52,859 nt of DNA from IMG/VR virus record IMGVR_UViG_2909303794_000004. One strand, written 5' to 3'. The DNA is from a virus. Taxonomy: Duplodnaviria; Heunggongvirae; Uroviricota; Caudoviricetes. The position numbers and the translations under genes are program-made. Shown here one piece after another: positions 1 to 25,055 of this stretch. How positions within the stretch are numbered: position 1 is the first letter of the stretch; every line of letters begins with the position of its first letter. The notes beneath the pieces were generated by a model, which worked only from the letters and a program-made list of their open reading frames with translations, searched no databases and was not told the DNA's origin.

Positions 1-19
1 CTATTTGATAAATATTAAA

Positions 20-1315
20 TTAATTTTTCATTGCTTCGTTATGGGGCATGGTTGGGGCAAACTCGCTTAACTGTGTATTTAACAAAGCTACCTGTGCATT
101 ATTGTTTTCAGACATCCATTTTCCGTATACCTGAAATACCATTTGCGCATCTGCATGGCCCATCTGGTTTGCTATAAATGCCGGGTTAGCACCAGCTGTC
201 AGCGACCAGCAGGCATAAGTATGTCTCGACTGATATGATTTTCGATGGCGGAGTCCGGCACGTTTTATCGCTGCGTCCCACATCTGCCTTATTGAGTCAA
301 CGGTAAAATGGTCACCATAATTTTTTACTCTCGCTGACACTTCAGGTTGAAAAACAAAGGTGCATTTTTGTTTTTCTGTTCTGCCATACTCTCTGAGGTG
401 AACATCAATGATATGCTCTTTGCTCAGTCTCGTTAATGTCATCTGACTCCGGAGAGCGTCGATTGCTGGCTTAATAAGATGAATGACCCGATTGGTTCCC
501 GCCTGTGTTTTTGGTACCGTGAAACGGTCTTTTGCTAAATTTCTCCTGATCATCATTGTTCCATTTTTCAGATCTATGTCCTCCCATCCAAGTGCACACA
601 GCTCACCAGGGCGAACGCCAGTATAAACAGAAACACACCATAAATTTTTGGCTTGCTGATTTCTGCACGCATCGATAAGACGGATGAATTCCTCCCGCGA
701 AAGAGGATCCGGAATGGTTCTTGATTCCTTTAATGGCGAGATCCCCTTAAACGGGTTATCTGCCAAGTAACCGTTATCAACACCAAACTGGAACACGGCG
801 TTAAGATTTGTCATGTAATTATTTACAGTTACAGCCGATCTCCCTGGTTGTGTAACAATATAGTTACTTTTGGGGATCTGGTATCCAGTCAGTAGCTCTT
901 TACGAACCTCCAGTAATTTTTCTTTATTAATCGATGAGGCAAGATTTTTTTCACCGATTATGCTCAGGATATTTTTGATGACGGCACGGTATGTGTTGAG
1001 TGATGTTTTTGCGACTTCAGTTTCTTTCAGTGCCAGAAATTTTTCAGCCAGTTCTTTTATGGTTAAATCTTGTCGGGCCTCACCAAATTTTTCCAGATTG
1101 CGTGAGGAGGGAAACTGTTTTGCATAGTCGAAAACACCAGTTTTTATTGCGTAACAAACAGAGGCGCGTAGTTCACCTGCAACGCGCCTGTTTTTTGCTG
1201 TGTCAGGAACCCCCAGATTTTCCCTGACTCTTACGCCTTTATAAACAAACCAGATACGTAATTTCCCTCCATGGTTTTCCACGCCTGTCGGATATTTCAT
1301 TTCAACTTCTCTCAT
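20..1315 (-). CDS. int: phage integrase, tyrosine recombinase family
   Basis: 431-aa ORF at the prophage edge; C-terminal region carries the tyrosine-recombinase catalytic pattern (…RHTYACW…GH…YGKW); directly followed by a small excisionase-like gene in the same orientation. Confidence 0.9.
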   Translation of the reverse strand: MREVEMKYPTGVENHGGKLRIWFVYKGVRVRENLGVPDTAKNRRVAGELRASVCYAIKTGVFDYAKQFPSSRNLEKFGEARQDLTIKELAEKFLALKETEVAKTSLNTYRAVIKNILSIIGEKNLASSINKEKLLEVRKELLTGYQIPKSNYIVTQPGRSAVTVNNYMTNLNAVFQFGVDNGYLADNPFKGISPLKESRTIPDPLSREEFIRLIDACRNQQAKNLWCVSVYTGVRPGELCALGWEDIDLKNGTMMIRRNLAKDRFTVPKTQAGTNRVIHLIKPAIDALRSQMTLTRLSKEHIIDVHLREYGRTEKQKCTFVFQPEVSARVKNYGDHFTVDSIRQMWDAAIKRAGLRHRKSYQSRHTYACWSLTAGANPAFIANQMGHADAQMVFQVYGKWMSENNNAQVALLNTQLSEFAPTMPHNEAMKN

Positions 1316-1334
1316 TAGTTAGTGTGGCTTTTAG

Positions 1335-1586
1335 TCAAGTAAGATGACGTCTTGGTCTCGCTGATGCCTGGCGCTCAATCCAGCGATCAATTTCTTCCAG
1401 GTTGTAAAAGCATGGGCTGTTATCCCATGGCATACCGTCATGAGCGACATGCTTATATTCCCTTCCTTCCATAAACGATTTTTCCCGGGCCTTTTTTAAC
1501 GTACCTTTTTTTATTCCTTTCAGCGCAATTAACTGCTCTTCGGATACCCATTTGCCGGGAGAGACAATCATGATTACTTCGCTCAT
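1335..1586 (-). CDS. excisionase-like small DNA-binding protein
   Basis: 83-aa ORF immediately upstream of int on the same strand, the canonical xis position; no motif confirmed. Confidence 0.55.
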   Translation of the reverse strand: MSEVIMIVSPGKWVSEEQLIALKGIKKGTLKKAREKSFMEGREYKHVAHDGMPWDNSPCFYNLEEIDRWIERQASARPRRHLT

Positions 1587-1658
1587 CGATTTCTTTATCT
1601 CTTACATTAGACGAGCGCCGGTTGCAGAATACCAGTCACAACCGGCGACAGTTGAACA

Positions 1659-4130
1659 TTAAGAATCAGCCTGACTCGGGATCAGTTTTTGCCAGATAAC
1701 TGAAACGTATTTTGCCTGGTAACGGGCGTCATCAAGTGCATTATGGCGCTCACCTTCGAATGGAATAGCCGTTCTGGCATCGAAGTCTATGGCTTTCCCC
1801 AGCTCAACGATTGTGCGTACATCGCGATCGTTGTAGTAACGCCACGGGCAGGGGATCCCCTGCCGTTCGTATGAACGGCGCAAAATCGTGTTGTCGAAGT
1901 TGGCTCCATTTCCCCAAACCTGAACAAAAAATTCACCGGAGTTTTCGTCGATAAATTCCCGCAATTGTAACAGTGCATCATCTAACGGGATTTCATCGGT
2001 CATAATGGCAGATTGCGCTTCGCGTGATTGCTTAAGCCACCATTTAATGGTGTCCCGATCAATGACTCCGCCAGCAGTTTCCAGATCGATAGTCTTACTA
2101 AATTCCGGTCCCATATCTCCGGTTTGCGGATCGAAAAATATTGCACCTATTGAGATGATCGGGGCATCAGGATTTTTTCCCATGGTTTCAAGGTCGATCA
2201 TTAGATGGTCACACGTCCTGCTGGTGGATGTGATTTCGTGATGACCGTTCACCTTAATTGAGTGATCTGCCGTCTCGCCAGTTTCATTATCGCTATTGTG
2301 ATGCTGATTGCCGCCAGTGTTCTCCTTGTGTGGATGTTCAGCGCCTTCCATTTCCTCCAGATCATCTTCCTGAACTTCAACCTGATACTCTTCATCGAAT
2401 GTTTCCTGGTATGTTGCGTCGCCCATCACCGCGCCACAATCAGGGCAGTTGCCGCCGCCGGTCTGACCGCAGGCGGTGCAGACTTTTTCCACTTCCAGTT
2501 GCGCCACTGGTTCAGGCTGTTTCGTTTCTGGCTCGTTTTGTAACGCATTTGTGCTGTTTTGTTCCGCTTTTTGGTAGTTCCGTTCCGATTCATGCTGGTT
2601 CTGGTTCACAGAATCGCGGGTCTGGATCCCCTTAACCCATTTCGGATCATTCGGGTCACTAATCCCTTCAACAAATTCACCACGTGATGCAGCAAGCAAC
2701 TTATCGGCGTCAGGCTGGCTGATATTGGCTGCCTGCATAATTTTGTTTACTTCGTCAGCGGTAACTTTTATCGGCTCTGGTTGTTCTGAATCTTCAGCGG
2801 TATCTACATTTTGCGGTAAGCCCGTGTATGTGCCATTTTTTCGGGCAAAATATTCTTCTTTTGTGATTTCAGTGGCGCCAGCAGCCAGTGCCTTATCCAG
2901 ACCAGAAAGTTTGTTTGCGCGACCGTATTTTTCTCCGTCCTTATCTGCGAAGAGGAAATAGAACGGCCCCTCACGCTCTACAGATGGTTCAGCTTCCGGC
3001 GCGGTTTCATTTTTTGGGATATCAGATACCTCAGTTTCCACTGCATCAGTTTGTGTTTCTGATGACTGGAGAACATCAACAGTGCCCAGGTCTGTTTCTT
3101 CATTCTCAAACACGCCCTTTGTCGTCAGGTATTCGCAGATATATTTGTTCAGTGCTATGGGATCTTTGTGAATGTCGATCGGACGCTCACGGACAAGGCC
3201 AAAAATAGTCTGGCGGTCGTAGCGAAGGGCATCAGGCTGTTTGCGCATTGATGCCGAGATACGCTTCCAGTCTTCGCGGTCGTTGTCGATAACTTCTTTT
3301 TTTGCCCAGCGATGGATGCTGCCGTCAATGTTTCCGGCATCCACATCACCAGGCCAGAGAGCGTAGGCCAGTTCGTCATCCAGTGTTTTCCATGTCTGCT
3401 TGTATTCGCGATGAATGGCAGCAATGACCGGGCTGATTTTTCCTGTTGAATTTTCAGTGTACTGTTGATTGGTTCTGGCGCGGGCGAGATCAACAACAGA
3501 CGTGTATTTTCCGGTTTCCTTGCGTTCACCTTCGCGACGTTTTTTCCAGATGCGCATCTCTGCCTGAATTTCGGGCCATTTAGCACCAGGAATACATTTA
3601 TGCTTAACCCACCCAATGGCGTGCAACTTAAGCTCCGGATACATGGCGTTAACTTCTGGCATTTTCATCAACGCTTCAACGATATGTCCGTCGAATGTTG
3701 CCATGTCTTCCTGCAACAATTCCTGTGCGCTAATAACCATATCAACGGTGATGTTTTCACATGTGTCGAACTTAACCATGACAGCGTTCTGTACTTCAGG
3801 GGCCAGCTTGTCAAAAGTGACGTTCATCGGATCGGATTCAGTCTCAACCGGGACAAAAGAAGCAGACTCCTCATCCCAGCGGTTTTCCTGCATATATTCA
3901 GCATCCCATGAATCGAGGGCAGGGCGGGGTATACCGGGTTTATCCTCGCAAACAAGAAATTTATAAGCGCAGTCCTGAGCAGCCGGATAATGTTCCAGGA
4001 ACTGCCAGTGAAATTTTGCTCGAGCACGGCGTTCGTCGCCAGCTTCAATGGCTGTGGCTACAGCCACAGCGCCTTCTTCCCTTGTTGCCAGTTCGTCAGG
4101 AATAGCGGCGCAAATAAAGACTTTACTCAT
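1659..4130 (-). CDS. large exonuclease-family protein: C-terminal DEDDh (DnaQ-like) 3'-5' exonuclease domain, central CxxC…CxxC zinc ribbon
   Basis: 823-aa ORF; C-terminus shows the three exonuclease motifs (DLETMG; NGANFDNTIL; HNALDDARYQ); zinc ribbon CTACGQTGGGNCPDCG mid-protein; sits in the early-left operon where lambdoid recombination exonucleases lie; probably the intact form of the truncated K-12 ydfE. Confidence 0.8.
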   Translation of the reverse strand: MSKVFICAAIPDELATREEGAVAVATAIEAGDERRARAKFHWQFLEHYPAAQDCAYKFLVCEDKPGIPRPALDSWDAEYMQENRWDEESASFVPVETESDPMNVTFDKLAPEVQNAVMVKFDTCENITVDMVISAQELLQEDMATFDGHIVEALMKMPEVNAMYPELKLHAIGWVKHKCIPGAKWPEIQAEMRIWKKRREGERKETGKYTSVVDLARARTNQQYTENSTGKISPVIAAIHREYKQTWKTLDDELAYALWPGDVDAGNIDGSIHRWAKKEVIDNDREDWKRISASMRKQPDALRYDRQTIFGLVRERPIDIHKDPIALNKYICEYLTTKGVFENEETDLGTVDVLQSSETQTDAVETEVSDIPKNETAPEAEPSVEREGPFYFLFADKDGEKYGRANKLSGLDKALAAGATEITKEEYFARKNGTYTGLPQNVDTAEDSEQPEPIKVTADEVNKIMQAANISQPDADKLLAASRGEFVEGISDPNDPKWVKGIQTRDSVNQNQHESERNYQKAEQNSTNALQNEPETKQPEPVAQLEVEKVCTACGQTGGGNCPDCGAVMGDATYQETFDEEYQVEVQEDDLEEMEGAEHPHKENTGGNQHHNSDNETGETADHSIKVNGHHEITSTSRTCDHLMIDLETMGKNPDAPIISIGAIFFDPQTGDMGPEFSKTIDLETAGGVIDRDTIKWWLKQSREAQSAIMTDEIPLDDALLQLREFIDENSGEFFVQVWGNGANFDNTILRRSYERQGIPCPWRYYNDRDVRTIVELGKAIDFDARTAIPFEGERHNALDDARYQAKYVSVIWQKLIPSQADS

Positions 4131-4223
4131 TTTGTTTTAACCTCATGACAGATTTAAGGATGAACAAATCCCTGCCATTGCTGGCATATAAGAATGAAAC
4201 CGGATATTTATTACGGAACTGTT

Positions 4224-4415
4224 TTAAAGACCTGCCGGGATTTCGATATTATCCTGGTGAATAACTTTATCGACCGGGTAACAGTTACCGGGAATTTTCT
4301 GTTCGGTTGCTGCAGTCATACACTCCTGCATTGTCCTGTGCACACTGACTGCAATATCAACTGGCTCTCCGGAAACAAGAAAAACTGTCAGAACAAGCAC
4401 AAATGCTGAATTCAT
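4224..4415 (-). CDS. ydfD: small membrane lysis protein, YdfD-like (63 aa)
   Basis: internal start MNSAFVLVLTVFLVSGE… with N-terminal hydrophobic helix; start overlaps the dicB stop (ATGA); matches remembered K-12 YdfD. Confidence 0.7.
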   Translation of the reverse strand: MNSAFVLVLTVFLVSGEPVDIAVSVHRTMQECMTAATEQKIPGNCYPVDKVIHQDNIEIPAGL

Positions 4416-4600
4416 TGTGCACATCCTTTTGGCATCAGACGTAAACGAGCCAGCATTGAAACAATGCATATTTTATTTAATAGCTCCCGTTCTTGTTTTC
4501 TCTTGTTAATGGCATCTTCAGTAAATACTGGGTTACTGATAGTGACACCAATTTCAAAACAACCTTCAGACGTATTAACGTTTGGTAATAACGTTTTCAT
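4412..4600 (-). CDS. dicB: cell-division inhibitor DicB (62 aa)
   Basis: MKTLLPNVNTSEGCFEIGVTISNPVFTEDAINKRKQERELLNKICIVSMLARLRLMPKGCAQ matches remembered DicB; lies downstream of DicF as in the K-12 dicB operon. Confidence 0.85.
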   Translation of the reverse strand: MKTLLPNVNTSEGCFEIGVTISNPVFTEDAINKRKQERELLNKICIVSMLARLRLMPKGCAQ

Positions 4601-4769
4601 TATCGCGTCCTCAACAATGAATTTTGTGATGCAGTGCCTGGTGCCTCCAGGTGACGTTAACCAGTTAACAATTAACGCCGGATACAGAGAATCCACCCAT
4701 AACACTGTTTTTGGTTTTAACTGTTCCGCGTGCGCTCAGCCGCATTCACCACATCACAAAATTCACTTT

Positions 4770-4827
4770 AAAAAGGGCGGCAGAGCAGTCACGGAGTAAA
4801 ACTGATACCGCCAAACGTCACCAGAAA
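4770..4827 (-). ncRNA. dicF: DicF small regulatory RNA with intrinsic terminator
   Basis: minus-strand sequence UUUCUGGUGACGUUUGGCGGUAUCAGUUUUACUCCGUGACUGCUCUGCCGCCCUUUUU matches remembered DicF, including GC stem and U tail; located between ydfC and dicB. Confidence 0.8.
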
Positions 4828-5167
4828 ATTGATAACAGAGGGCGTTGCAGCGGGGTTGTCACTTAAGCGTATGGTCAACCTGACAACCCGGTGTCCTCAA
4901 CGGGGAAGGAATAACCCCGCCATACTTACCGCCGCGCCATTTCGCGGGTTGCCACAACCGGAAGCGCACGGTCGACGAAAATTTAACGACAGGCTATCTA
5001 TGAACCAGCTACCTCGCCGTGCGCTTTCGCGTTATGGTCTGACCTTTCAGGGAAATATCCTTTCAGTAAACTGTCAGTGCCGGATGCTCACCCGTGTCCG
5101 GCGCACGCACTCCACCTCACCCGTGGAGAACTCCTTAATTACTAACCTTAGCTTTGTTGATTAGCTA

Positions 5168-5386
5168 CTAACGCGGGTATGTAATCATTCTGGCAATGCT
5201 TAATGCCGCTGCTTTTTCCAGATTGGTGATATCCTGCTCCAGAGCGGACAGATTTTCAGCCTGCTTAGCCCTGGTTTCATTGGCCCATTTCAAATCCTGC
5301 GCTGCATTAATTTTCTGGCGCATCCACTCATAAAGTTCATCATCGGTATAGTCTGGCGCGATGATGACGGGTTCTCGTTTCTGCAT
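5168..5386 (-). CDS. ydfC: YdfC-like small protein (72 aa)
   Basis: ORF in the dicB operon position between ydfB and dicF. Confidence 0.65.
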   Translation of the reverse strand: MQKREPVIIAPDYTDDELYEWMRQKINAAQDLKWANETRAKQAENLSALEQDITNLEKAAALSIARMITYPR

Positions 5387-5415
5387 ACTGATTCCTCGCG
5401 GTGCTGTTTCGCTTA

Positions 5416-5544
5416 TCAGCCGTTAGATTTTGCCGAACTGGAAAGCGCCTGTTTAAATTCGTTGAAGCTGAGAGCTTCTTCGCCGTCGGCAAGACCTTCG
5501 AAGTATTCTTCGTAAGCCTTTTCCATGATTGTGTCGAAATCCAT
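5416..5544 (-). CDS. ydfB: YdfB-like small acidic protein (42 aa)
   Basis: manually translated minus-strand ORF MDFDTIMEKAYEEYFEGLADGEEALSFNEFKQALSSSAKSNG; start 1 nt after the ydfA stop; below the 60-aa cutoff of the ORF track. Confidence 0.55.
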   Translation of the reverse strand: MDFDTIMEKAYEEYFEGLADGEEALSFNEFKQALSSSAKSNG

Positions 5545-5545
5545 A

Positions 5546-5701
5546 TCACTCACCTGGGTTTCTTTCCAGCCAGCGACGGGCACCATTTTCGGTTTTAAAC
5601 GTTTTGCTTTTGGTATACGTCATCGCGGTGAACGTACCGTCCTGGTTGGGGAACACGCCACATACCAGAGATTCGCTGTTGCCAAGATCGATAGTATCCA
5701 T
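5546..5701 (-). CDS. ydfA: YdfA-like small protein (51 aa)
   Basis: internal start MDTIDLGNSESLVCGVF… of the 69-aa track ORF; first gene downstream of dicA as in K-12. Confidence 0.6.
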   Translation of the reverse strand: MDTIDLGNSESLVCGVFPNQDGTFTAMTYTKSKTFKTENGARRWLERNPGE

Positions 5702-5815
5702 GCTGACCTCATTTCCCCTTAACGCCGGGGTAGCGGAACTGTTTGCTGAGAACACCGTGCGGTGTCTTGATGGAAAATAATTTAGAATAACCTAACATGA
5801 GAGGCAAGTGTTTTT

Positions 5816-5833
5816 TGTTAGATTGATCTAACA
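5816..5833. promoter_or_regulatory. operator-like palindrome TGTTAGA-N4-TCTAACA in the dicB-operon promoter region
   Basis: inverted repeat read directly (TGTTAGATTGATCTAACA) between the dicA stop and the ydfA start. Confidence 0.5.
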
Positions 5834-5869
5834 AAAAGGGTGGGCGCAACTAATCACTTGAAAAGAATG

Positions 5870-6277
5870 TTATTTTATTGATTTATTTTTACGCGCTTTA
5901 AGCATTTCTTCGAAGAGTTTGTTGAAGTTTTCTACTCTTGCGCGCATTTCAGACAGCAAGGCTTCCTGCTCGGAAGATGGAAGAGCATCGAATAATTCGA
6001 TCAATTCTTTGTGGTTGGGAGTTAGCTCTGTTTCCACATGAAGTTCTTGTGCAGGCACTGGTGCCTTGTCTTCGTCACCAAACATTAGCCATGTAGGTGA
6101 GCACTTCAGAGCATCCGCTAAAGCAAACAATCGTTTTCCGACTGGCTGGGTTTCGTCTCTTTCCCATTGTGAAATTGTGACGTGAGCAACTCCAGCGAGG
6201 CGCGCGGCTTCTCGTTGTGTTAAGCGTAATTCTTTTCGTCGCGCCAGAACTCGCTGGCCCAGGGTTCTTGTATCCAT
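5870..6277 (-). CDS. dicA: HTH XRE-family prophage repressor DicA (135 aa)
   Basis: N-terminal HTH (LTQREAARLAGVAHVTISQWERDE) and C-terminal …EMRARVENFNKLFEEMLKARK closely resemble remembered K-12 DicA; divergent from a Cro-like gene. Confidence 0.9.
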   Translation of the reverse strand: MDTRTLGQRVLARRKELRLTQREAARLAGVAHVTISQWERDETQPVGKRLFALADALKCSPTWLMFGDEDKAPVPAQELHVETELTPNHKELIELFDALPSSEQEALLSEMRARVENFNKLFEEMLKARKNKSIK

Positions 6278-6326
6278 AGTTAGGTAATTCTAATTTTTCT
6301 TGACTTAGGTATCCCGCGCACAATAA

Positions 6327-6344
6327 TGTTAGAAAGGTCTAACA
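6327..6344. promoter_or_regulatory. operator-like palindrome TGTTAGA-N4-TCTAACA in the dicA/dicC divergent promoter region
   Basis: TGTTAGAAAGGTCTAACA between the dicA start (6277) and the dicC-like start (6359); same half-sites as the 5816-5833 site. Confidence 0.55.
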
Positions 6345-6358
6345 AGAGGGGGGCTTTG

Positions 6359-6584
6359 ATGCTTAAAGTTGACGCAATTACTTTTTTTGGCAGCAAAACA
6401 AAGCTTGCCAATGCCGCAGGAGTGAGGCTGGCAAGTGTTGCTGCTTGGGGGATACTTTCCTGAAGGTCGCGCGATGCGTCTACAGGAGGCATCTGGCGGG
6501 GAGCTTCAGTATGATCCCAAAGTTTATGATGAATATCGTAAGACGAAGCGGGCGGGGCGGTTGAACAATGAAAATCACTCCTGA
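6359..6584 (+). pseudogene. dicC: Cro-like regulator DicC homologue, reading frame broken at a G5 run
   Basis: N-terminal HTH part (MLKVDAITFFGSKTKLANAAGVRLASVAAWG) stops at TGA 6461-6463; C-terminal part (…PEGRAMRLQEASGGELQYDPKVYDEYRKTKRAGRLNNENHS) is in the +1 frame to 6584; frames overlap at GGGGG 6447-6451. Confidence 0.5.
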
Positions 6585-7089
6585 ACAGGCTCGTGAGGCT
6601 CTGGATGCCTGGATATGTCGACCAGGAATGACACAGGAGCAGGCGACGATATTAATCACTGAAGCATTCTGGGCTTTGAAAGAGCGCCCGAACATCGATG
6701 TTCAGCGTGTCACAGATGAAGGTGGTGCGGTTGATCAGCGAGCGCTTGGTGTTAATCGAGTGAAGATATTCGAACGCTGGAAGGCTATCGACACCAGGGA
6801 TAAGCGTGAAAAGTTCACGGCGCTAGTGCCTGCGATTATGGAGGCTATCCGGATTAGTGATTTCAGGTTGTATCGTGAAATTACTGACGGAAAAAGCATC
6901 ACGTGCATGATCGCCGGGTTAAACAAAGAATATGGCGATGTGGTGGAGTCCGGACTGCTTTTTGCTGATCCTGCCGTAGTGGATCGTGAAACTGACGAAC
7001 TTATAGAAAAAGCAATTGCTTTCAAGCTTGCGTATCGACAGCAATACCAACAAAAAGCTGGATGGAATTATGAGCCTTCTTTTTGCTGA
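6568..7089 (+). CDS. hypothetical early regulatory protein, possibly YdaT/CII-like
   Basis: 173-aa ORF directly after the Cro-like gene and before the replication gene, the cII position; family assignment is a guess from memory. Confidence 0.45.
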   Translation: MKITPEQAREALDAWICRPGMTQEQATILITEAFWALKERPNIDVQRVTDEGGAVDQRALGVNRVKIFERWKAIDTRDKREKFTALVPAIMEAIRISDFRLYREITDGKSITCMIAGLNKEYGDVVESGLLFADPAVVDRETDELIEKAIAFKLAYRQQYQQKAGWNYEPSFC

Positions 7090-7990
7090 ACGCCCACTGG
7101 TTATAAACACGCAGCTGGCAATGAAAATTGGCTTAAACGAAGCCATTGTTTTGCAACAACTGCACTACTGGTTGAGAGATACCAACTCCGGCATGGAATG
7201 TGATGGTGTTCGCTGGATTTATAACACAACGGAACAATGGCTGGAACAGTTCCCATTCTGGTCAGAGTCAACGTTAAAGCGCGCGTTTGCAAGTCTGAAA
7301 ACGCTGGGGCTTTTGCGTTGTGAAAAGCTCAATAAATCAAAGCGCGATATGACCAATTTCTACACGATCAACTATGGGAGCGAGCTTTTAGATGGTGGCA
7401 AATTGAGCGAATCCATCGGTTCAAAATGCGCCGCTCCATCAGGTCAAAATGACACGATGGAAGAGGTCAAAATGAAACGCTCCATTGGTTCAAAACGACC
7501 CAATGTCATCGGGTCAAAATGGCCTGATGATCTTACAGAGAATACAACAGAGATTACTACAGAGAATAAAAACACTTTTCGTCCGGAAGCTTCGCAACCG
7601 GACCCGCAGACGACTGAACAGGATTCTTTAACCCGGAACTCCGACGCGGTTGTGTTTAGTGCGAAAAAACGCCAGTGGGGTAGCAGGGAGGATTTGGCGT
7701 GTGCGCAGTGGATCTGGGGGCGGATCGTGGGTCTCTACGAACAGGCAGCCAGTGATGATGGCGAGATCATGCGACCAAAAGAGCCTAACTGGACTGCCTG
7801 GGCCAATGACGTGCGCACAATGCGGATGCTGGATGGCAGAAGCCACAGACAAATTTGCGAAATGTTTGGTCGGGTTCAGCGAGATCCATTCTGGGTAAAA
7901 AACATCATGAGCCCGTCAAAGCTCCGCGAAAAAAAAATGGGACGAACTGGTCATCCGCCTGGGACGTTCACCTGTACAGCGTTGTGTTAA
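7070..7990 (+). CDS. phage replication initiation protein (lambda O analogue) with origin iterons inside the gene
   Basis: 306-aa ORF in the O position; N-terminal HTH-like domain; central region encodes a repeated IGSK motif generated by iterons. Confidence 0.75.
   Translation: MSLLFAERPLVINTQLAMKIGLNEAIVLQQLHYWLRDTNSGMECDGVRWIYNTTEQWLEQFPFWSESTLKRAFASLKTLGLLRCEKLNKSKRDMTNFYTINYGSELLDGGKLSESIGSKCAAPSGQNDTMEEVKMKRSIGSKRPNVIGSKWPDDLTENTTEITTENKNTFRPEASQPDPQTTEQDSLTRNSDAVVFSAKKRQWGSREDLACAQWIWGRIVGLYEQAASDDGEIMRPKEPNWTAWANDVRTMRMLDGRSHRQICEMFGRVQRDPFWVKNIMSPSKLREKKMGRTGHPPGTFTCTALC
7411..7523 (+). repeat. candidate replication origin: five direct ~18-bp iterons (consensus TCCATCNGGTCAAAATG) at 23-24 bp spacing, followed by an A-rich tract
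   Basis: repeats at about 7411, 7435, 7458, 7480 and 7505 read directly; A-rich ACAGAGAATA-type segment at 7530-7575; same arrangement as lambda ori inside O. Confidence 0.6.
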
Positions 7991-8079
7991 TCATATTTCT
8001 GAACCGGATACAGAAATTCCGCCTGGTTTCAGAGGATAAGTGTTGATTTCAGGTCATGAGGTAATTTTAAGGGGGACTT

Positions 8080-8502
8080 GTGGCAAAAGTTTTTACACAA
8101 GAAGAGCGGGAAAAAATTAAATGGCAGGTGGTGGAACTCGTGCGCCAGAGCGGCCGTGAGACGTTACGGCAACTGGAAGCTAAAACAGGTGCGACTAGAT
8201 ATCTGATGAGCGTTCTTGCCAGAGAGCTGGTAGCCAGTGGCGATGTATACAACTCCGGCTACGGGTTATTCCCCTCTGAACAGGCGCGTAAGGACTGGCA
8301 AAACGCCCGCAAAAAACTCTCGAGGGCAAAGGTGAAGAAACCTGCTGTGGTTGATCCGGACCTTATCTGGTCATCACCTGACGGAGAAATACGTCGCTAC
8401 GACAGTCGCCTAAACATAATCTGTCGCGAGTGCCGGAAGAGCGAAGTTATGCAGCGCATACTGGCTTTCTATCAGGGTAATTTTCAGGACGTGGCGCAGT
8501 GA
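8080..8502 (+). CDS. hypothetical phage protein (140 aa)
   Basis: GTG start 7 nt after a strong Shine-Dalgarno (AAGGGGGA); occupies the position of lambda P but is too small and unlike a helicase loader. Confidence 0.55.
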   Translation: MAKVFTQEEREKIKWQVVELVRQSGRETLRQLEAKTGATRYLMSVLARELVASGDVYNSGYGLFPSEQARKDWQNARKKLSRAKVKKPAVVDPDLIWSSPDGEIRRYDSRLNIICRECRKSEVMQRILAFYQGNFQDVAQ

Positions 8503-8844
8503 GTGCACCGGCAACCATTCTTGATATGTGCTGTGGCAGCCGCATGTTCTGGTTCGATAAGTCTGACGAACGGGCGATATTCAGCGATATCAGAAAAGAA
8601 GGATACACATTACGCAATGGGAGACGCTTGATTATCAGCCCTGACATTATCGCAGATTTTCGTGCATTATCATTTGCAGACGCATCTTTTTCGATGGTTG
8701 TATTAGACCCTCCGCATCTTGAGAGTGTTGGTGATAACGCCTGGATGGGAAAGAAATATGGACGGCTGAATAAAGATGCCTGGCGTGATGATTCGCGACA
8801 GAGATTTAAAGAAGCCTTTCGGGTGTTGAGGCCGCACGGCGTAC
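8499..8844 (+). pseudogene. DNA methyltransferase gene, 3' end removed by IS insertion
   Basis: SAM-binding motif ILDMCCGS and a DPPH(L) motif; reading frame runs into the IS629-like left end at 8845. Confidence 0.65.
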
Positions 8845-8898
8845 TGAACCGCCCCGGGAATCCTGGAGACTAAACTCCCTGAGAAAGAGGTAAACAGG

Positions 8899-9225
8899 AT
8901 GACTAAAAATACACGTTTTTCCCCCGAGGTCCGTCAACGGGCAGTTCGTATGGTTCTGGAAAGTCAGGGCGAATATGACTCTCAATGGGCGGCAATTTGT
9001 TCCATTGCCCCAAAGATTGGCTGTACACCAGAGACTCTGCGTGTGTGGGTTCGTCAGCATGAGCGGGATACCGGGAGTGGTGATGGTGGACTCACCACCG
9101 CTGAACGTCAGCGTCTGAAAGAGCTGGAACGTGAAAATCGTGAACTGCGCCGCAGTAACGATATCCTTCGCCAGGCTTCCGCTTATTTTGCGAAGGCGGA
9201 GTTCGACCGCCTCTGGAAAAAATAA
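8899..9225 (+). CDS. IS3-family transposase OrfA (108 aa)
   Basis: [50 protein letters not shown]… matches remembered IS629 OrfA. Confidence 0.9.
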
Positions 9226-10112
9226 TGCCGCTGCTGGATAAGCTGCGTGAGCAGTACGGGGTCGGACCGGTATGCAGTGAACTGCATATTGCCCCGTCAA
9301 CGTATTACCACTGTCAGCAACAGCGACATCATCCTGATAAACGCAGTGCCCGTGCTCAGCGCGATGACTGGCTGAAGAGAGAGATACAGCGCGTATACGA
9401 TGAAAATCATCAGGTGTACGGTGTGCGTAAAGTCTGGCGCCAGTTGTTACGCGAAGGTATCAGGGTGGCCAGATGTACAGTGGCGCGCCTCATGGCGGTT
9501 ATGGGACTTGCCGGTGTTCTCCGGGGTAAAAAGGTCCGTACTACCGTCAGCCGGAAAGCCGTTTCCGCAGGCGACCGCGTAAACCGTCAGTTCGTGGCAG
9601 AACGTCCTGACCAGCTGTGGGTGGCTGATTTTACTTACGTCAGCACATGGCAGGGCTTCGTCTATGTGGCGTTCATCATTGATGTGTTTGCCGGATGTAT
9701 CGTGGGGTGGCGAGTCTCATCGTCTATGGAAACGACATTCGTGCTGGATGCACTGGAGCAGGCGTTGTGGGCCCGTCGGCCGTCCGGCACAGTCCATCAC
9801 AGTGATAAAGGTTCTCAGTATGTATCACTGGCCTATACGGAGCGACTAAAAGAAGCAAAACTGCTGGCATCAACAGGGAGTACAGGTGACTCGTATGACA
9901 ACGCGATGGCGGAGAGCATCAATGGTCTTTACAAAGCGGAGGTAATACACCGTAAGAGCTGGAAAAACCGTGCAGAAGTGGAACTGGCCACACTCACGTG
10001 GGTGGACTGGTATAACAATCGACGATTGCTGGGAAGGCTGGGTCATATCCCTCCGGCAGAAGCAGAAAAAGCTTATTATGCTTCCATCAGAAACGATGAT
10101 CTGGCAGCCTGA
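9225..10112 (+). CDS. IS3-family transposase OrfB (DDE domain)
   Basis: 295-aa ORF overlapping orfA in the -1 frame near an A-run, typical of IS3-family OrfAB. Confidence 0.9.
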   Translation: MPLLDKLREQYGVGPVCSELHIAPSTYYHCQQQRHHPDKRSARAQRDDWLKREIQRVYDENHQVYGVRKVWRQLLREGIRVARCTVARLMAVMGLAGVLRGKKVRTTVSRKAVSAGDRVNRQFVAERPDQLWVADFTYVSTWQGFVYVAFIIDVFAGCIVGWRVSSSMETTFVLDALEQALWARRPSGTVHHSDKGSQYVSLAYTERLKEAKLLASTGSTGDSYDNAMAESINGLYKAEVIHRKSWKNRAEVELATLTWVDWYNNRRLLGRLGHIPPAEAEKAYYASIRNDDLAA

Positions 10113-10778
10113 GTTCACAGATAAAACACTCTCCAGGAAAACCGGGGCGGTTCATTCTGATTTTTTAATGGAATGAAACGCAAATACCGGTAAGCCAGAT
10201 TCTGGCACTGACAGACAGAAAACCTGTTATCTGTCAACGAACAGGGAAAAAACGATAAAACCCACTGGATTATTTTTATGAAAGAGGCATCCAGTGAGTA
10301 GATTCGTAAGGCTACAGATACGTATATCTGAATAATTAAATTCAGTTCTGTAAATAAAATTTAATCCTTAACCGGATGGATTTCTGCACCCTCAGAACAT
10401 CAGGAGGCCGCCCGAAAGGGCGGTAGTGAAATGCGAAAGTTCAAAATTATTATTGAAACGGGAATAGCTGGTGGAGATTTTGAGGATGTATTCGAAGTGG
10501 ACGATGACGCAACACCTGAGGAAATTCATGACGGAGCATAAGAAATTTTCTTTAACTACTGCAATTACTCATACCACGAAATAAAAGACGATGAGGAAGA
10601 ACAAAGTGGCTGATTTTTGTTCAGCTAAATATAACATCAGTTTTGAAGAGCGGGATGAACTATTAATGGACTATGGTGAGTTACGCGGTGGAAGTGCTGC
10701 TGATGTCGAATCCTAGCGTGATGACTATGAAGCGGGAAAAACTCCGGTCGAAGCATATTGTGATGAGTGGGGCGATGA

Positions 10779-11108
10779 ATGAGCGAGATTAATTATCAGG
10801 AAGGGCATGAAACGGCGGGGCAAGCAAAACCAGTGGCATGGCGATATCGCTACGTGAAAAAAGGCGTTACGGACTTTCAGGGGAAGTAGTGGTCTGGTGA
10901 CTGGAAATATGTACCGAAAAAAGAGGATTGTAACGACAGGCCGAACTATCAAATTCAGGCCTTATTCACTGCCTCACCAGTCCCAGTTACATCAGAAGAA
11001 CTGGTTAAAGCTGTGCACTTTTATGAACAACTAAAACGCGAAAATCCACCAACATCCGGCAACAAGATTAATGGATTAACTATGTCGGTTAAACGACCAG
11101 CCAACTGA
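10779..11108 (+). pseudogene. decayed ORF with in-frame amber codon
   Basis: MSEINYQEGHETAGQAKPVAWRYRYVKKGVTDFQGK, then TAG at 10887-10889, then 72 further in-frame codons; upstream short ORFs show serial +1 frame changes and an in-frame TAA at 10539-10541. Confidence 0.3.
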
Positions 11109-11320
11109 AAAAGCGGAAACCTGATTACAGGTTGCCAGATAAGGCAATGAGCTACCTGGCGCGGAACGGACTGATAAGTATGGGGAATGTTTTACGATGA
11201 ACCTTTAGACTAAAGAGTTTGTAACGCTATGTAAGTGATTTTTTCTGGTTTAGATATTTATATGTCCGGCCAAATTGAGGTGTGTTTAAATGTAATTGCA
11301 CATTGATTGTAGGAGGAATA

Positions 11321-11500
11321 ATGAAAAACGCATTGCAGTTTTTGTTTGTTGCGTTCTGGTTGTTCGCATCATGTATGCCCATCATCTTCACAGCAAGGTA
11401 TATGGAAAAAGTTGATGTTTTGATATTAATATTTGGATATATAAATGCCCTTTTTTTAGGGGTGTTCATGGCGGTCATGTGCATTGAATACTGGCGGTAA
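11321..11500 (+). CDS. small hydrophobic membrane protein (59 aa, two predicted TM helices)
   Basis: ATG 7 nt after a perfect AGGAGG; MKNALQFLFVAFWLFASCMPIIFTARYMEKVDVLILIFGYINALFLGVFMAVMCIEYWR. Confidence 0.45.
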   Translation: MKNALQFLFVAFWLFASCMPIIFTARYMEKVDVLILIFGYINALFLGVFMAVMCIEYWR

Positions 11501-11855
11501 ATACAGCGAACTCCATTGGTTTAGTTGGATATTTACTGTGCTGGACAAAAACGGTTTGCGGGGAAATCTTAGTTAAGTAGAATGACTGCGGGTGCTTGAG
11601 GCTATCTGCCTCGGGCATGGACACCAACGGCAGATAGAGAAAAGCCCCAGTTAACATTACGCGTCCTGCAAGACGCTTAACATTAATCTGAGGCCAATTT
11701 CATGCTAGACACATGTAGGTTAGCCTCTTACGTGCCGAAAGGCACGGAGAAGCAGGCTATTGTTAACACCAAGCTGTAATGTCCCCTTTGAACCATTCTA
11801 AAATGTCCCCAGACAATTCTCTGGGGGATTTTTCATAATCAAAGAGACTGTTACG

Positions 11856-13148
11856 ATGAGTCATAAGGAACTCCACCGACTTCAGATTATTCAGGAACAA
11901 GCTGCGGCACGCATTGGCATTTCTATTCGGCAGGTTAAACGTCTGGTGCAACGGTATAGAAATGAAGGGCCTTCTGGTCTGGTTTCCCACCGACGTGGAA
12001 AGCGTCCTAATAATTCCTTTTCTACTGAATTCAGAGCAACAGTAATTTCACTCCTCAAAGGCCGTTACGCTGATTTTGGACCTACGTTTGCGTGCGAAAA
12101 ATTGCGCGAGATACACGGTTTATCTTTATCCGTTGAAACTCTCAGAAAGTGGATGATAGAAGAGGGGTTATGGCGTGAACGCCGTCGTAAAATTGCCCGT
12201 ATATATCAACGCCGCATGCGACGACCATCTTACGGTGAACTGATCCAGATTGATGGCTCACCTCATGACTGGTTTGAAAATCGAGGCCCCAGATGTACAC
12301 TGATCGTTTTCATTGATGATGCCACCAGTGCGTTGATGGCGTTGCGTTTTGTGCCTGCTGAAACAACCCGGGCTTACATGGAAACCCTCCGGGGTTACCT
12401 TAATGATCATGGCGTACCGCTCGCTCTCTACTCTGATAGACACAGTATATTCAGGGTAAATAACCCAGAGCGGGAAGGTGAGCTGACCCAGTTCACTCGT
12501 GCGATAAAGACACTGGGCATCGAGCCAATCCATGCCAACAGCCCGCAGGCAAAAGGGCGGGTAGAGCGCGCCAATCAGACACTACAGGACAGGCTGGTCA
12601 AAGAAATGCGGCTTCAGAATATCAGTGATATTGAAACAGCAAATGCATGGTTGCCGACCTTTATTGAAGCCTATAACAACCGGTTCGCTACGTCGCCTCG
12701 TACTACTGATAATGCTCATCTTGATGTGCACCATTCTGAAGAGGAACTGGGTTATATCTTCAGCCTACAGGCGAAGCGCGTTCTGTCTAAAAATCTCACT
12801 TTCCAGTACAAAAGCAGTGCGTTTCAGGTACGCAGTGAGGGCCGGGGATATCGACTTAGGCATTCGGTTGTTACTGTATGCGAGAACTTTGACGGTGAAA
12901 TTAACGTTCTGTATGACGGGAAAGCGCTGGGCTGGGAAAAGTATGTTGATGGCCCGGAGCCTATACCACTGGATGATGAAAAGAGTGTCCATGAACGAGT
13001 GGATAATGCCCGTATTGATTTACGCTCAAAATACTATGTTAAACCTAAAGCTGACCATCCCTGGCTTACGCGCCGAACGCAAAGTCATCAGCAAGTTAAG
13101 CCCCCGAAGTTACCTAAAAAGAAGCCTGATCCCGATAAAAAAGATTGA
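11856..13148 (+). CDS. DDE (rve-type) transposase with N-terminal HTH, IS481-family-like
   Basis: 430-aa ORF; HTH followed by integrase core (…IDDATSA…YSDRHSIF…HANSPQAKGRVERANQTL…); element ends not resolved. Confidence 0.8.
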   Translation: MSHKELHRLQIIQEQAAARIGISIRQVKRLVQRYRNEGPSGLVSHRRGKRPNNSFSTEFRATVISLLKGRYADFGPTFACEKLREIHGLSLSVETLRKWMIEEGLWRERRRKIARIYQRRMRRPSYGELIQIDGSPHDWFENRGPRCTLIVFIDDATSALMALRFVPAETTRAYMETLRGYLNDHGVPLALYSDRHSIFRVNNPEREGELTQFTRAIKTLGIEPIHANSPQAKGRVERANQTLQDRLVKEMRLQNISDIETANAWLPTFIEAYNNRFATSPRTTDNAHLDVHHSEEELGYIFSLQAKRVLSKNLTFQYKSSAFQVRSEGRGYRLRHSVVTVCENFDGEINVLYDGKALGWEKYVDGPEPIPLDDEKSVHERVDNARIDLRSKYYVKPKADHPWLTRRTQSHQQVKPPKLPKKKPDPDKKD

Positions 13149-13584
13149 AACCAAGATCGATTCGGTTGAGTGCATATCCATTCATAGGGTAGATTCTTAA
13201 GTCGCGTTTCTGGTGTTCATTTTCGGGTGGTTTGTTACTTGTTTTACCGGGGATATGCCAGAAACGCGCTGAGTCAGTCTGGGCGGTGCGCGTAATGAGG
13301 CGTTATGGTAAATAGCCTATGCTAATGTCCGCTAAGAGCAAGAAGCGGAAGTTGGCAGTTTTGTGGACTGTCCCCACAAAAGTGACTACAGAAATAGTTG
13401 CAATTCATAATTGATCATGGGTTGTCAGTTAAACTCGTGGCGATTTAAATAGACTAATTGGGAGTGCGTCCATTACTTATATCTTGTAATGTTAACTATC
13501 AGAAATGATACAAAGATAATATGTCTTTAAAGAAAAGGCTGATGGCGAAAAGTGGCCCGATGAGGGCCACAATACGGCTGTCAC

Positions 13585-13692
13585 TTAGACGTAAATATCA
13601 ATGGTGCCAGCGGTATTTGTATCGTCTTTTTTCTCTTCTTTTTTATCAGGCTGAACTGTCGCGTCTTCATTCTTTTTCTCTGCCTGCTGCCT
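13585..13692 (-). pseudogene. flxA: flxA 3' fragment (C-terminal 35 codons) separated by ISEc8-like insertion
   Basis: reading frame is continuous with 16143-16367 once the IS and one duplication copy are removed, giving a 110-aa FlxA. Confidence 0.75.
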
Positions 13693-13771
13693 TAACAACT
13701 GTAAGCGTACAGCCTGAACCGTCTGGTCAGAATCTGACGAATTAGACAAAGTGGTGTCCACCAAATAAGTA

Positions 13772-14173
13772 GTGGGAACCAAAGTGTCAGATATGCAGAA
13801 AAATGTGACTCCCGGCAGGCGAAAAGGCTGCCCTAATTATCCTCCCGAATTTAAACAGCAGCTCGTTGCTGCCTCCTGTGAACCCGGGATATCCATCTCA
13901 AAACTTGCTCTTGAAAATGGCATTAACGCCAATCTGTTGTTCAAATGGCGACAACAATGGCGCGAGGGAAAGCTGCTATTACCTTCTTCAGAGAGCCCCC
14001 AGCTACTTCCTGTGACTCTCGATGCAGCTGCCGAACAGCCAGAATCGCTCGCAGAGGACCCGGAAACCCTCAGTATCAGCTGTGAGGTAACGTTCCGGCA
14101 CGGGACGCTCCGCTTCAATGGCAATGTCAGCGAAAAGCTCCTGACTCTGCTGATACAGGAACTGAAGCGATGA
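13772..14173 (+). CDS. IS66-family accessory protein (orf1)
   Basis: first ORF of the IS66-type three-gene set. Confidence 0.8.
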   Translation: MGTKVSDMQKNVTPGRRKGCPNYPPEFKQQLVAASCEPGISISKLALENGINANLLFKWRQQWREGKLLLPSSESPQLLPVTLDAAAEQPESLAEDPETLSISCEVTFRHGTLRFNGNVSEKLLTLLIQELKR

Positions 14174-14517
14174 TCCCGTTACCTTCCGGGACCAAAATTT
14201 GGCTGGTTGCCGGTATCACCGATATGAGAAATGGCTTCAACGGCCTGGCTGCGAAAGTACAGACGGCGCTGAAAGACGATCCCATGTCCGGCCATGTTTT
14301 CATTTTCCGGGGCCGCAGCGGCAGTCAGGTTAAACTGCTGTGGTCCACCGGTGACGGGCTGTGCCTCCTGACCAAACGGCTGGAGCGTGGGCGCTTCGCC
14401 TGGCCGTCAGCCCGTGATGGCAAAGTGTTCCTTACGCAGGCGCAGCTGGCGATGCTGCTGGAAGGTATCGACTGGCGACAGCCTAAGCGGCTGCTGACCT
14501 CCCTGACCATGCTGTAA
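14170..14517 (+). CDS. IS66-family accessory protein (orf2)
   Basis: 115-aa ORF overlapping orf1 by ATGA, typical of IS66. Confidence 0.85.
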
Positions 14518-14566
14518 ATCTCTTTATCCTGGTTGTCACAGAATAAGCCCGGTAAAATACGGGCTT

Positions 14567-16105
14567 ATGAACGACATCTCTTCTGACGACATCTTCCTGC
14601 TGAAACAGCGCCTGGCCGAACAGGAAGCGCTGATCCACGCCCTGCAGGAAAAGCTGAGCAACCGGGAGCGCGAAATAGACCATCTGCAGGCGCAGCTGGA
14701 TAAACTCCGCCGGATGAACTTCGGCAGTCGTTCCGAAAAAGTCTCCCGCCGTATCGCACAAATGGAAGCCGATCTGAACCGGCTTCAGAAAGAGAGCGAT
14801 ACGCTGACTGGTAGGGTGTATGACCCGGCAGTACAGCGTCCGTTGCATCAGACCCGCACCCGTAAGCCGTTCCCTGAATCACTACCCCGTGACGAAAAGC
14901 GACTGTTGCCTGCGGCGCCGTGCTGCCCGAACTGCGGCGGTTCACTGAGCTATCTGGGCGAGGATACCGCCGAACAGCTGGAGTTGATGCGTAGCGCCTT
15001 CCGGGTTATCCGGACGGTACGGGAAAAACATGCCTGTACTCAGTGCGATGCCATCGTGCAGGCACCTGCACCTTCGCGGCCCATCGAGCGGGGTATCGCC
15101 GGACCGGGGCTGCTGGCCCGCGTGCTGACCTCGAAGTATGCAGAGCACACCCCGCTGTATCGCCAGTCAGAAATATACGGCCGGCAAGGTGTGGAGCTGA
15201 GCCGTTCACTGCTGTCGGGCTGGGTGGATGCATGCTGCCGGCTGCTGTCTCCGCTGGAAGAGGCGCTTCATGGCTATGTCATGACTGACGGCAAACTCCA
15301 TGCCGATGATACCCCGGTCCAGGTACTGCTGCCGGGTAATAAGAAGACGAAGACCGGGCGGTTGTGGGCGTATGTTCGTGATGACCGCAATGCCGGGTCA
15401 GCGTTGGCACCTGCAGTGAGGTTCGCTTACAGCCCGGACAGAAAAGGCATCCATCCGCAGGCTCATCTTGCTTGCTTCAGCGGTGTGCTGCAAGCGGATG
15501 CGTACGCCGGGTTCAACGAGCTGTATCGCAATGGTGGGATAACGGAAGCTGCCTGCTGGGCTCATGCCCGCCGAAAGATCCACGATGTGCACGTCCGCAT
15601 CCCGTCAGCACTGACGGAAGAAGCCCTGGAGCAGATCGGTCAGTTGTACGCCATAGAGGCGGATATAAGGGGAATGCCGGCAGAGCAGCGGCTTGCTGAA
15701 CGTCAGCGAAAAACGAAACCGCTGTTGAAATCCCTGGAAAGCTGGTTGCGTGAAAAGATGAAGACCCTGTCGCGACACTCAGAGTTGGCGAAGGCGTTCG
15801 CGTACGCACTTAACCAGTGGCCGGCACTGACGTACTATGCGAACGATGGCTGGGTGGAAATCGACAACAACATCGCTGAAAATGCCCTGCGGGCGGTCAG
15901 TCTGGGTCGTAAAAACTTCCTGTTCTTCGGCTCTGACCATGGTGGTGAGCGGGGAGCGCTACTGTACAGCCTGATCGGGACGTGCAAACTGAATGACGTG
16001 GATCCAGAAAGCTACCTTCGCCATGTGCTTGGCGTCATAGCAGACTGGCCGGTCAACCGGGTCAGCGAACTGCTTCCGTGGCGCATAGCACTGCCAGCTG
16101 AATAA
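14567..16105 (+). CDS. IS66-family transposase (orf3)
   Basis: 512-aa ORF with N-terminal coiled-coil/leucine zipper and cysteine cluster (CPNCG…CTQCD), typical of IS66 transposases. Confidence 0.9.
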
Positions 16106-16142
16106 CACATCCCCGTCAATACGGCCCTCGCTGTACGCTTAC

Positions 16143-16367
16143 TAACAACTGCTCCAGTTGAGCCCAGAGGCTTTCAATTTGCTTCTGTACCAATGCAGCC
16201 ATTTCTTTTTTCTGCTGTGTCGTCATCCCCTCTTCCGATGAGATTTTCCCAAGCTTTTCAGTCAGCACCTGAATTTGTCTTGTGATTTTGGCTATTTCTG
16301 ATGTTCCTTCCGGGGCGGAGTTGTTTGAAATAACGGTTGAGGTATTTCCCTGAATTGTGACAGACAT
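16143..16367 (-). pseudogene. flxA: flxA 5' fragment (N-terminal 75 codons)
   Basis: MSVTIQGNTSTVISNNSAPEGTSEIAKITRQIQVLTEKLGK… matches remembered FlxA; reads into the ISEc8 right end. Confidence 0.8.
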
Positions 16368-20917: not shown

Positions 20918-21217
20918 AAAAATTCCTTAATACTGATAACTTGGCGCACTATACACACGTTCCTGAAGAAAGCTATAGTTTTTTGATGGGGTTGAAGATG
21001 GCTGGATGTCTAAAATAAACATTGCTTCATATGTTCAACTATGCGTTAATGATTGCGTCGGTTTGAAGAACAGACGATATACGAAGTAGTTTACTAAAGC
21101 AGTTCTCATTTCAGGTGTTATTCACTTATTCCTTCTTTGAGTCTCTCCAATTAAGTACGAAGTCGTTTCTGTTATGCAAACCATTTATGCCGAAAGGCTC
21201 AAGTTAAGGAATGTAGA

Positions 21218-21433
21218 ATGTCAAATAAAATGACTGGTTTAGTAAAATGGTTTAACGCTGATAAAGGTTTCGGCTTTATTTCTCCTGTTGATGGTAGTAA
21301 AGATGTGTTTGTGCATTTTTCTGCGATTCAGAATGATAATTATCGAACCTTATTTGAAGGTCAAAAGGTTACCTTCTCTATAGAGAGTGGTGCTAAAGGT
21401 CCTGCAGCAGCAAATGTCATCATTACTGATTAA
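21218..21433 (+). CDS. cspB: cold-shock protein CspB (71 aa)
   Basis: [67 protein letters not shown]… near-identical to remembered CspB. Confidence 0.9.
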
Positions 21434-21714
21434 AATTCATCGCTCGTCTGTATACGATAACGAAGAAGGCTGATGCCTGAGTAGAGATACGGACAGAGTA
21501 GTGAATATTGGATCTCTTTAATAAAAAGTAAGGAGGTCCAATACATGAAACAATGGCTAGCATATTTGGCAAAATCTTAATCAGGAAAAGTATGCTAACC
21601 ATTGTGGTGAAGTGCAGGTTTGCTGCATGAATAGTTTTACAGCAGAAGCTAACTGCTGGCATGGCAAAACAAAGTGCGTAAGTGGATGACTCCCACAAAA
21701 AGCACCACAATCTC

Positions 21715-22406: not shown

Positions 22407-22718
22407 ATGACTCAAGACTATGAACTGGTTGTGAAAGGAGTCCGTAATTTTGAGAATAAAGTTACGGTAACTGTAGCCTTACAGGACAAAGAACGCTTTG
22501 ACGGTGAAATTTTTGACCTGGATGTCGCCATGGACCGTGTTGAAGGAGCTGCGCTGGAGTTTTATGAGGCAGCAGCCAGAAGGAGCGTCCGGCAAGTCTT
22601 CCTGGAAGTAGCAGAAAAATTGTCAGAAAAAGTTGAGTCTTATCTGCAGCATCAGTACTCCTTTAAGATTGAAAATCCTGCCAATAAGCACGAGCGTCCT
22701 CATCATAAATATCTATGA
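22407..22718 (+). CDS. ydfR: YdfR-like protein (103 aa)
   Basis: 103-aa ORF between holin and endolysin as in K-12; stop overlaps the endolysin start (ATGA). Confidence 0.65.
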   Translation: MTQDYELVVKGVRNFENKVTVTVALQDKERFDGEIFDLDVAMDRVEGAALEFYEAAARRSVRQVFLEVAEKLSEKVESYLQHQYSFKIENPANKHERPHHKYL

Positions 22719-22832
22719 ACACAAAAATCAGATACGGCCTGTCGGCTGCCGTTCTGGCGCTGATTGGTGCTGGCGCATCTGCTCCTCAGATACTTGACCA
22801 GTTTCTGGACGAAAAAGAAGGTAACCACACAA
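22715..22832 (+). pseudogene. SAR-endolysin gene, 5' part (39 codons with N-terminal signal-arrest-release helix), interrupted by IS629-like insertion
   Basis: MNTKIRYGLSAAVLALIGAGASAPQILDQFLDEKEGNHT then the IS left end; frame resumes at 24146. Confidence 0.8.
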
Positions 22833-22874
22833 TGAACCGCCCCGGGTTTCCTGGAGAGTGTTTTATCTGTGAAC

Positions 22875-23765: not shown

Positions 23766-24088
23766 TTTTTCCAGAGGCGGTCGAACTCCGCCTTCGCAAA
23801 ATAAGCGGAAGCCTGGCGAAGGATATCGTTACTGCGGCGCAGTTCACGATTTTCACGTTCCAGCTCTTTCAGACGCTGACGTTCAGCGGTGGTGAGCCCG
23901 CCATCACCGCCTCCGGTATCCCGCTCATGCTGGCGTACCCAGACACGCAGAGTCTCCGGTGTACAGCCAATCTTTGGGGCAATGGAACAAATTGCCGCCC
24001 ACTGTGAGTCATATTCGCCCTGACTTTCCAGAACCATACGAATCGCCCTCTGACGGACTTCGGGGGAAAAACGAGTATTTTTAGTCAT
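23762..24088 (-). CDS. IS3-family transposase OrfA
   Basis: 108-aa ORF, 2 substitutions relative to copy 1. Confidence 0.9.
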
Positions 24089-24145
24089 CCTGTTTACCTC
24101 TTTCTCAGGGAGTTTAGTCTCCAGGATTCCCGGGGCGGTTCACAA

Positions 24146-25055
<910 letters not shown>

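Follow-up and report, generated by a model that had tools for sequence, protein, structure and literature searches.

The stretch of DNA analysed here (the window, 52,859 nucleotides; IMG/VR record IMGVR_UViG_2909303794_000004, class Caudoviricetes) corresponds in sequence and gene order to a Qin (Kim)-type lambdoid prophage of Escherichia coli. An insertion sequence (IS) of the IS629 family (IS3 family), the first of two such elements in the window (copy 1), splits a methyltransferase gene of this prophage, located in the early-right (nin-equivalent) region. A first-pass annotation of the window had proposed an IS-adjacent deletion at copy 1, whose flanking triplets do not match (TAC on the left, TTC on the right). 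The comparison with IS-free relatives leads to another reading, in which copy 1 is very probably a simple insertion of an IS629 subtype that duplicated TTC, the left copy of which now reads TAC, with no loss of host DNA.

The empty site of copy 1

Removal of copy 1 together with one triplet gave a joined flank of 1943 bp, with which we searched 5,426 complete E. coli genomes. At least 80% of this sequence was covered in 371 of the genomes, and the single-piece matches listed, such as that in ATCC 8739, extend over 100% of it at 99.9% identity. The empty site in ATCC 8739 and RM14721 reads ...CACGGCG-TTC-TGATTTTTTAATGG..., i.e., the left flank, TTC, and the right flank (written out, the stretch is GGCGTTCTGATT in these two strains and ...CACGGCGTTCTGATTTTTTAATGG... 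in IS-free relatives). Since this is exactly the left flank, one TTC, and the right flank, without a single base missing, a simple insertion is indicated. Only two differences separate the joined flank, which had been built with TAC, from ATCC 8739, namely the middle base of the triplet (joined-flank position 799, where the window has A and ATCC 8739 has T) and window position 11064.

The flanks of copy 1 are contiguous base for base in ATCC 8739, RM14721, JP538, and TOK-001. When both IS copies were removed from the window, a single high-scoring segment pair ran over the copy 1 site against TOK-001 (window 1-11896) and another spanned 6457-13701 against ATCC 8739 and JP538; the copy 2 site was also crossed. 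The two triplets by themselves are uninformative, because two random triplets agree at two of three bases by chance in 14% of cases, and only the empty-site comparison is informative. On re-examination, the flanks hold no perfect duplication; as read from the empty site, TTC was duplicated and one mismatch now separates its copies. The T→A change at 8843 is synonymous (GTT→GTA, Val), and the intact methyltransferase paralogue in the Stx2c phage EH0430 also has TTC at the target site.

Copy 1 begins with TGAACCGCCCCGGG and ends with CCGGGGCGGTTCA. As the first-pass annotation had noted, both copies share the same ends (TGAACCGCCCCGG / CCGGGGCGGTTCA), in which the terminal inverted repeats begin with TGAAC, and the unmatched triplets of copy 1 stand beside a clean CAA duplication at copy 2. 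Both elements have the characters of the IS629/IS1203 type: a length of about 1310 bp, TGAAC ends, overlapping OrfA (helix-turn-helix) and OrfB (DDE) reading frames with a -1 frameshift element, and a 3-bp target duplication (in this type sometimes 4 bp), which in copy 1 has one mismatch. The open reading frames (ORFs) of the IS match the Pfam families HTH_Tnp_1, HTH_21, and rve (HTH_Tnp_1 and rve in both copies), the Rfam ALIL pseudoknot is found in both copies at 120 bits, and the Prokaryotic Genome Annotation Pipeline (PGAP) labels identical IS copies in other genomes as "programmed frameshift". Counterparts of copy 1 with 100% identity occur on many E. coli chromosomes and plasmids. Compared with IS629/IS1203 in E. 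coli and Shigella, copy 1 has the same 1310 bp, inverted repeats, orfA/orfB arrangement with -1 frameshift and ALIL, 3-bp duplication, and preference for prophages, and no substantive difference except the one duplication mismatch.

IS3-family elements move in copy-out-paste-in fashion with a circular intermediate (bioRxiv 10.1101/2023.06.07.543989). By its family membership, this widespread IS629 subtype would have used the same route, with the circular intermediate inserting at codon 115/116 of the methyltransferase gene. TTC was duplicated on insertion and its left copy turned into TAC by one T→A change, for which an origin after insertion and one during integration have roughly even odds. 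Imperfect or absent duplications are commonplace for IS629, since only 21 of 47 sites in O157:H7 have matching ones (PMC3271280).

Three points weigh against a simple insertion. The duplication of copy 1 is imperfect, with two of its three bases agreeing. No sister strain with TTC on both sides was found that would date the change after the insertion, the only other instance of the left junction being a 708-bp metagenome contig. Furthermore, neither the copy 1 junction nor that of copy 2 is present in any complete RefSeq E. coli genome, and exact-pattern scans of genome, viral, and metagenome contig collections did not find the left junction of copy 1 (with W at the variable base).

The insertion is an event of an already-known kind, in which a common IS has entered a gene that was already dead, in a cryptic prophage that is itself well known, and its biological importance is small. 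Its value is methodological: unmatched flanking triplets are no evidence of an IS-adjacent deletion unless the empty site is examined, and an IS is not necessarily the cause of decay beside it.

Alternative origins of the unmatched flanks

That the mismatch was made during integration, and not by a later random substitution, is a tentative alternative. It could have come from misincorporation during the filling of the 3-nt gap or from the ligation of a donor-derived 3-nt 5′ flap from the circle junction. The A at 8843 is the sole difference from ATCC 8739 and JP538 within 7933-11063 (about 1.8 kb of flank), and the 1310-bp IS is itself identical to copies elsewhere. Private changes occur locally at about 3-6 x 10^-4 per bp, from which a later hit in the six duplication bases would be expected in less than about 0.4% of insertions of such age. 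This statistic is, however, post hoc, as it was the mismatch that drew attention to the site. Also against an origin in integration are three further simple insertions of IS629-family elements into this prophage (in RM14721, RM10410, and cS100a), which have the perfect duplications GAC, TTG, and ATT, and a literature search on imperfect target duplications found no published precedent.

The more specific version, in which the mismatch is an integration scar left by a donor-derived TAC flap that was ligated into the gap and not removed, is doubtful. It is our own proposal; the IS3-family circle junction carries short donor flanking sequence (bioRxiv 10.1101/2023.06.07.543989), and this preprint gives mechanistic background only. 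A TAC flap would pair with the target at two of three positions, and the resulting heteroduplex would segregate at the next replication. If this were true, the donor copy's flank could be preserved in imperfect duplications made by copy-out-paste-in elements, and a mismatch shown to stem from integration would be a minor addition to the known IS3-family mechanism.

Other sources of the TAC triplet were considered and rejected. No alternative parse with a 4-bp duplication or shifted IS boundaries yields a perfect repeat. Gene conversion from a paralogous methyltransferase gene does not provide TAC, since the Stx2c-phage paralogue has TTC, and the O157:H7 paralogue carries its IS about 800 bp away at another site.

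A sequencing or assembly error at 8843 that masks a perfect duplication is very unlikely. The A5→A9 homopolymer difference at 7924-7932, which could be an assembly artefact, lends it some credence, but the 708-bp metagenome contig, which comes from an independent ENA short-read assembly (ERZ27308828, k141_27413), has the identical left junction including TAC.

The least probable reading, with next to no weight left, is that after insertion an IS-adjacent deletion (through the transposase and the IS-excision enhancer, IEE, or through intramolecular transposition) erased the duplication and truncated the methyltransferase gene: it draws on the differing triplets of copy 1 and on IS629-adjacent deletions that are known, linked to transposase and IEE (PMC9943667), and present in the same prophage region of other strains, but hundreds of IS-free homologues have the two flanks of copy 1 joined base for base, and what remains of the methyltransferase gene follows the IS directly on its right side, with no space for a missing base. 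The first-pass annotation's deletion is thus refuted by homologous prophages that have the same junctions and no IS (ATCC 8739, JP538, TOK-001, and hundreds more).

Four complete genomes (2018-10-1CC, TUM3755, CE10, and MMC-J-0105) carry true deletions in Qin, each bridged by an IS629-family element. The interior of the exonuclease gene (window-equivalent 2250-2521) is joined in them to the early-right operon (6659-8436), with 4-6 kb gone and ydfD, dicB, dicA, and dicC removed. The four deletions are independent; the end points all differ and the flank triplets are unmatched. Their recurrence suggests a hotspot or selection for loss of the segment. Such deletions of the IEE/transposase type involve the same IS family and would also leave unmatched flanks (PMC9943667); at copy 1, by contrast, the ancestor has both flanks side by side, and thus no deletion took place there.

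A methyltransferase gene dead before the insertion

The first-pass annotation had the methyltransferase gene ending at the IS, which holds insofar as the ORF from the GTG at 8499 reads into copy 1 and stops at 8873; its truncation by a deletion does not hold, as the remainder of the gene lies on the other side of the IS (Table 1). In related prophages, where the missing sequence was to be sought, nothing proved to be missing. Lesions were mapped by aligning the gene with ATCC 8739 and with its intact counterpart in Stx2c phage EH0430, an ORF of 164 aa. Codon 119 is a premature TAA (10166-10168; AAA in the intact homologue), and an extra G in the run 10244-10246 causes a +1 frameshift. Both the TAA and the extra G are also in IS-free ATCC 8739. 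The whole gene is thus still in the window, split in two, and it was a pseudogene before the IS came in, given that nonsense mutation and frameshift are both present in IS-free relatives. PGAP annotates a 357-bp coding sequence ending at the same TAA in ATCC 8739, RM14721, and JP538, and a methyltransferase gene that is "frameshifted; internal stop" in TOK-001.

Without the IS, the frame reads ...RPHGVLIF*WNETQIPVSQILALTDRKPV..., and the insertion point precedes the older premature stop by three codons. The coding effect of copy 1 is the replacement of the final residues of the pseudogene, ...LIF*, by ...LNRPGNPGD*. The insertion is therefore essentially without coding consequence and would at most add polarity in an already crippled prophage.

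When repaired, the protein has 162 aa and aligns (tblastn) over residues 1-162 with the Stx2c-phage ORF at 84.6% identity, and over about 155-160 residues with phage methyltransferases of Klebsiella, Salmonella, Erwinia, and Pectobacterium. It thereby resembles class I S-adenosylmethionine (SAM)-dependent, putatively DNA-modifying methyltransferases of phages, with which it shares 63-85% identity over the whole repaired 162 aa: those of Stx2c EH0430 (164 aa) and of phages of Klebsiella, Salmonella (vB_SosS_Oslo), Erwinia, and Pectobacterium (ZF40). The Pfam score for Methyltransf_11 is 20.2 bits, below the cut-off of 21.2. In contrast to the intact phage genes, the Qin gene is a pseudogene in every relative examined and in the window is also split by the IS; the uninterrupted ORF of about 160 aa over the whole fold that marks a functional gene is broken by the IS at codon 115/116, the TAA, and the frameshift.

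The fragmentary region further downstream, which had been linked to the supposed deletion, has the same pseudogenes in IS-free relatives. Positions 10155-11063 have zero differences from ATCC 8739 or JP538, and the one private substitution, at 11064, lies inside the hypothetical-protein pseudogene. Because the same defects are annotated in IS-free relatives, the decay at 10431-11200 is ancestral to the prophage lineage and unrelated to the IS. Between this stretch and the ISNCY transposase gene, at 11590-11761 (+), lies a match to the sok antitoxin RNA family (Rfam, 104 bits, exceeding the gathering score). The relatives have no annotated hok gene at the corresponding position, and the match may be a remnant of a hok/sok system.

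The second IS copy and the prophage

Copy 2 also has 100% identical counterparts on many plasmids, and its CAA duplication (22830-22832 and 24143-24145) is perfect. It interrupts the Qin lysozyme gene rrrQ (22715-22832 and 24146-24561) after 118 bp. The gene is annotated in IS-free TOK-001 and JP538, with which the IS-deleted reconstruction aligns gap-free across the site, and the lysis cassette of the prophage is disrupted by this insertion.

The two copies are inverted, forming the sole long inverted repeat found in the window, and lie 12,678 bp apart, in agreement with the 12.7 kb given earlier. They differ at 71 of 1310 nucleotides (94.6% identity, 5.4% divergence), and their proteins at 15 residues, of which 2 are in OrfA and 13 in OrfB, for which the first-pass figure of about a dozen was fair. 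Recombination between the copies is expected to be rare because the longest identical run they share is only 133 bp. The segment 6000-27000 matches relatives at one place and on one strand, and since it is collinear with IS-free relatives and the copy 2 duplication is clean, no inversion between the copies has occurred, as the first-pass annotation had held. Its view of the copies as independent insertions of related isoforms likewise stands: both have counterparts of 100% identity in circulation elsewhere and their divergence fits the subtype distance, so that they represent independent insertions of two known IS629 subtypes. Three subtypes, 4-5% apart, have been described for O157:H7 (PMC3271280).

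In the OrfB motif WVAD(F/S)TY, residue 136 is Ser in copy 2 and Phe in copy 1. The adjacent Asp is presumably the first catalytic residue of the DDE transposase. The copy 2 sequence with this Ser is nevertheless the one found at 100% identity on many plasmids.

The assignment of the window to Qin follows the gene order, which runs from integrase, excisionase, and exonuclease genes through ydfD, dicB, the DicF RNA, ydfC/B/A, dicA, dicC, a YdaT-family gene, an O-like gene, and a DUF977 gene to the methyltransferase gene, two pseudogenes, the ISNCY transposase gene, ydfW, flxA, relBE, hokD, ydfU, and ydfT, followed by cspB/F, essD, rrrQ, rzpQ, cspI, and morphogenesis genes. The window is collinear, at 98-99.9% identity, with Qin as annotated in many strains, among them ATCC 8739, JP538, and TOK-001, and this gene order likewise agrees with the deposited phage record PhiR42_1 from ECOR13. 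It extends from the integrase gene to the ydfK region and includes no chromosomal flank; the relatives are located at the ydfJ and rspAB/ynf locus. Compared with the fuller Qin forms of ATCC 8739, JP538, and TOK-001, it has three private IS insertions, two of the IS629 type and one of the ISEc8 type.

Table 1. Positions of the elements, genes, and RNAs discussed, in window coordinates
Feature	Position	Strand	Details
DicF RNA	4775-4826		Rfam match
Methyltransferase pseudogene, N-terminal part	8499-8844	+	Class I SAM-dependent; 115 codons + 1 nt; WP_001310834.1 in IS-free relatives
Left target-duplication triplet	8842-8844		TAC; ancestral TTC, T→A at 8843
IS629-family (IS3 family) element, copy 1	8845-10154	+	1310 bp, intact; inverted repeat finder and reading of ends
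Copy 1 orfA	8899-9225	+	HTH_Tnp_1 (Pfam)
Copy 1 ALIL frameshift pseudoknot	9180-9296		Rfam match
Copy 1 orfB	9225-10112	+	rve (Pfam)
Right target-duplication triplet	10155-10157		TTC, ancestral state
Methyltransferase pseudogene, C-terminal remainder	10158-10301	+	Directly right of IS; original stop TAG 10299-10301
DUF7167-family pseudogene	10431-10613	+	Internal TAA 10539-10541; PGAP in ATCC 8739, RM14721, JP538
Hypothetical-protein pseudogene	10779-11200	+	Frameshifted, internal stops; PGAP, IS-free relatives
IS66-family (ISEc8-like) element	13701-16142		2442 bp; ends GTAAGCG...CGCTTAC
cspA-type thermoregulator leader	21057-21449	+	Rfam; cspB position in annotated Qin relatives
IS629-family element, copy 2	22833-24142	-	1310 bp
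cspA-type thermoregulator leader	25272-25656	+	Rfam; cspI position in annotated Qin relatives
IS009 small RNA	51389-51587	+	Rfam match

The ISEc8-like element is flanked by a perfect 8-bp duplication, TAACAACT (13693-13700 and 16143-16150), and shares 99.4% identity with an ISEc8 copy that JP538 carries at another place; its site is empty in ATCC 8739. The A-run at 7924-7932 has nine A in the window and five in ATCC 8739, JP538, and TOK-001, which puts the O-like replication gene (7016-7990) out of frame over its final ~35 residues; the difference could be genuine or could have arisen in the assembly of the homopolymer. At window position 13481, downstream of the ISNCY transposase region, the window has 25 bp fewer than ATCC 8739. 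A Qin-like element has also been deposited as a complete 48.7-kb phage genome (PV340562.1, Escherichia phage PhiR42_1, from ECOR13) and shares the 357-bp truncated methyltransferase gene and the downstream stretch with the window.

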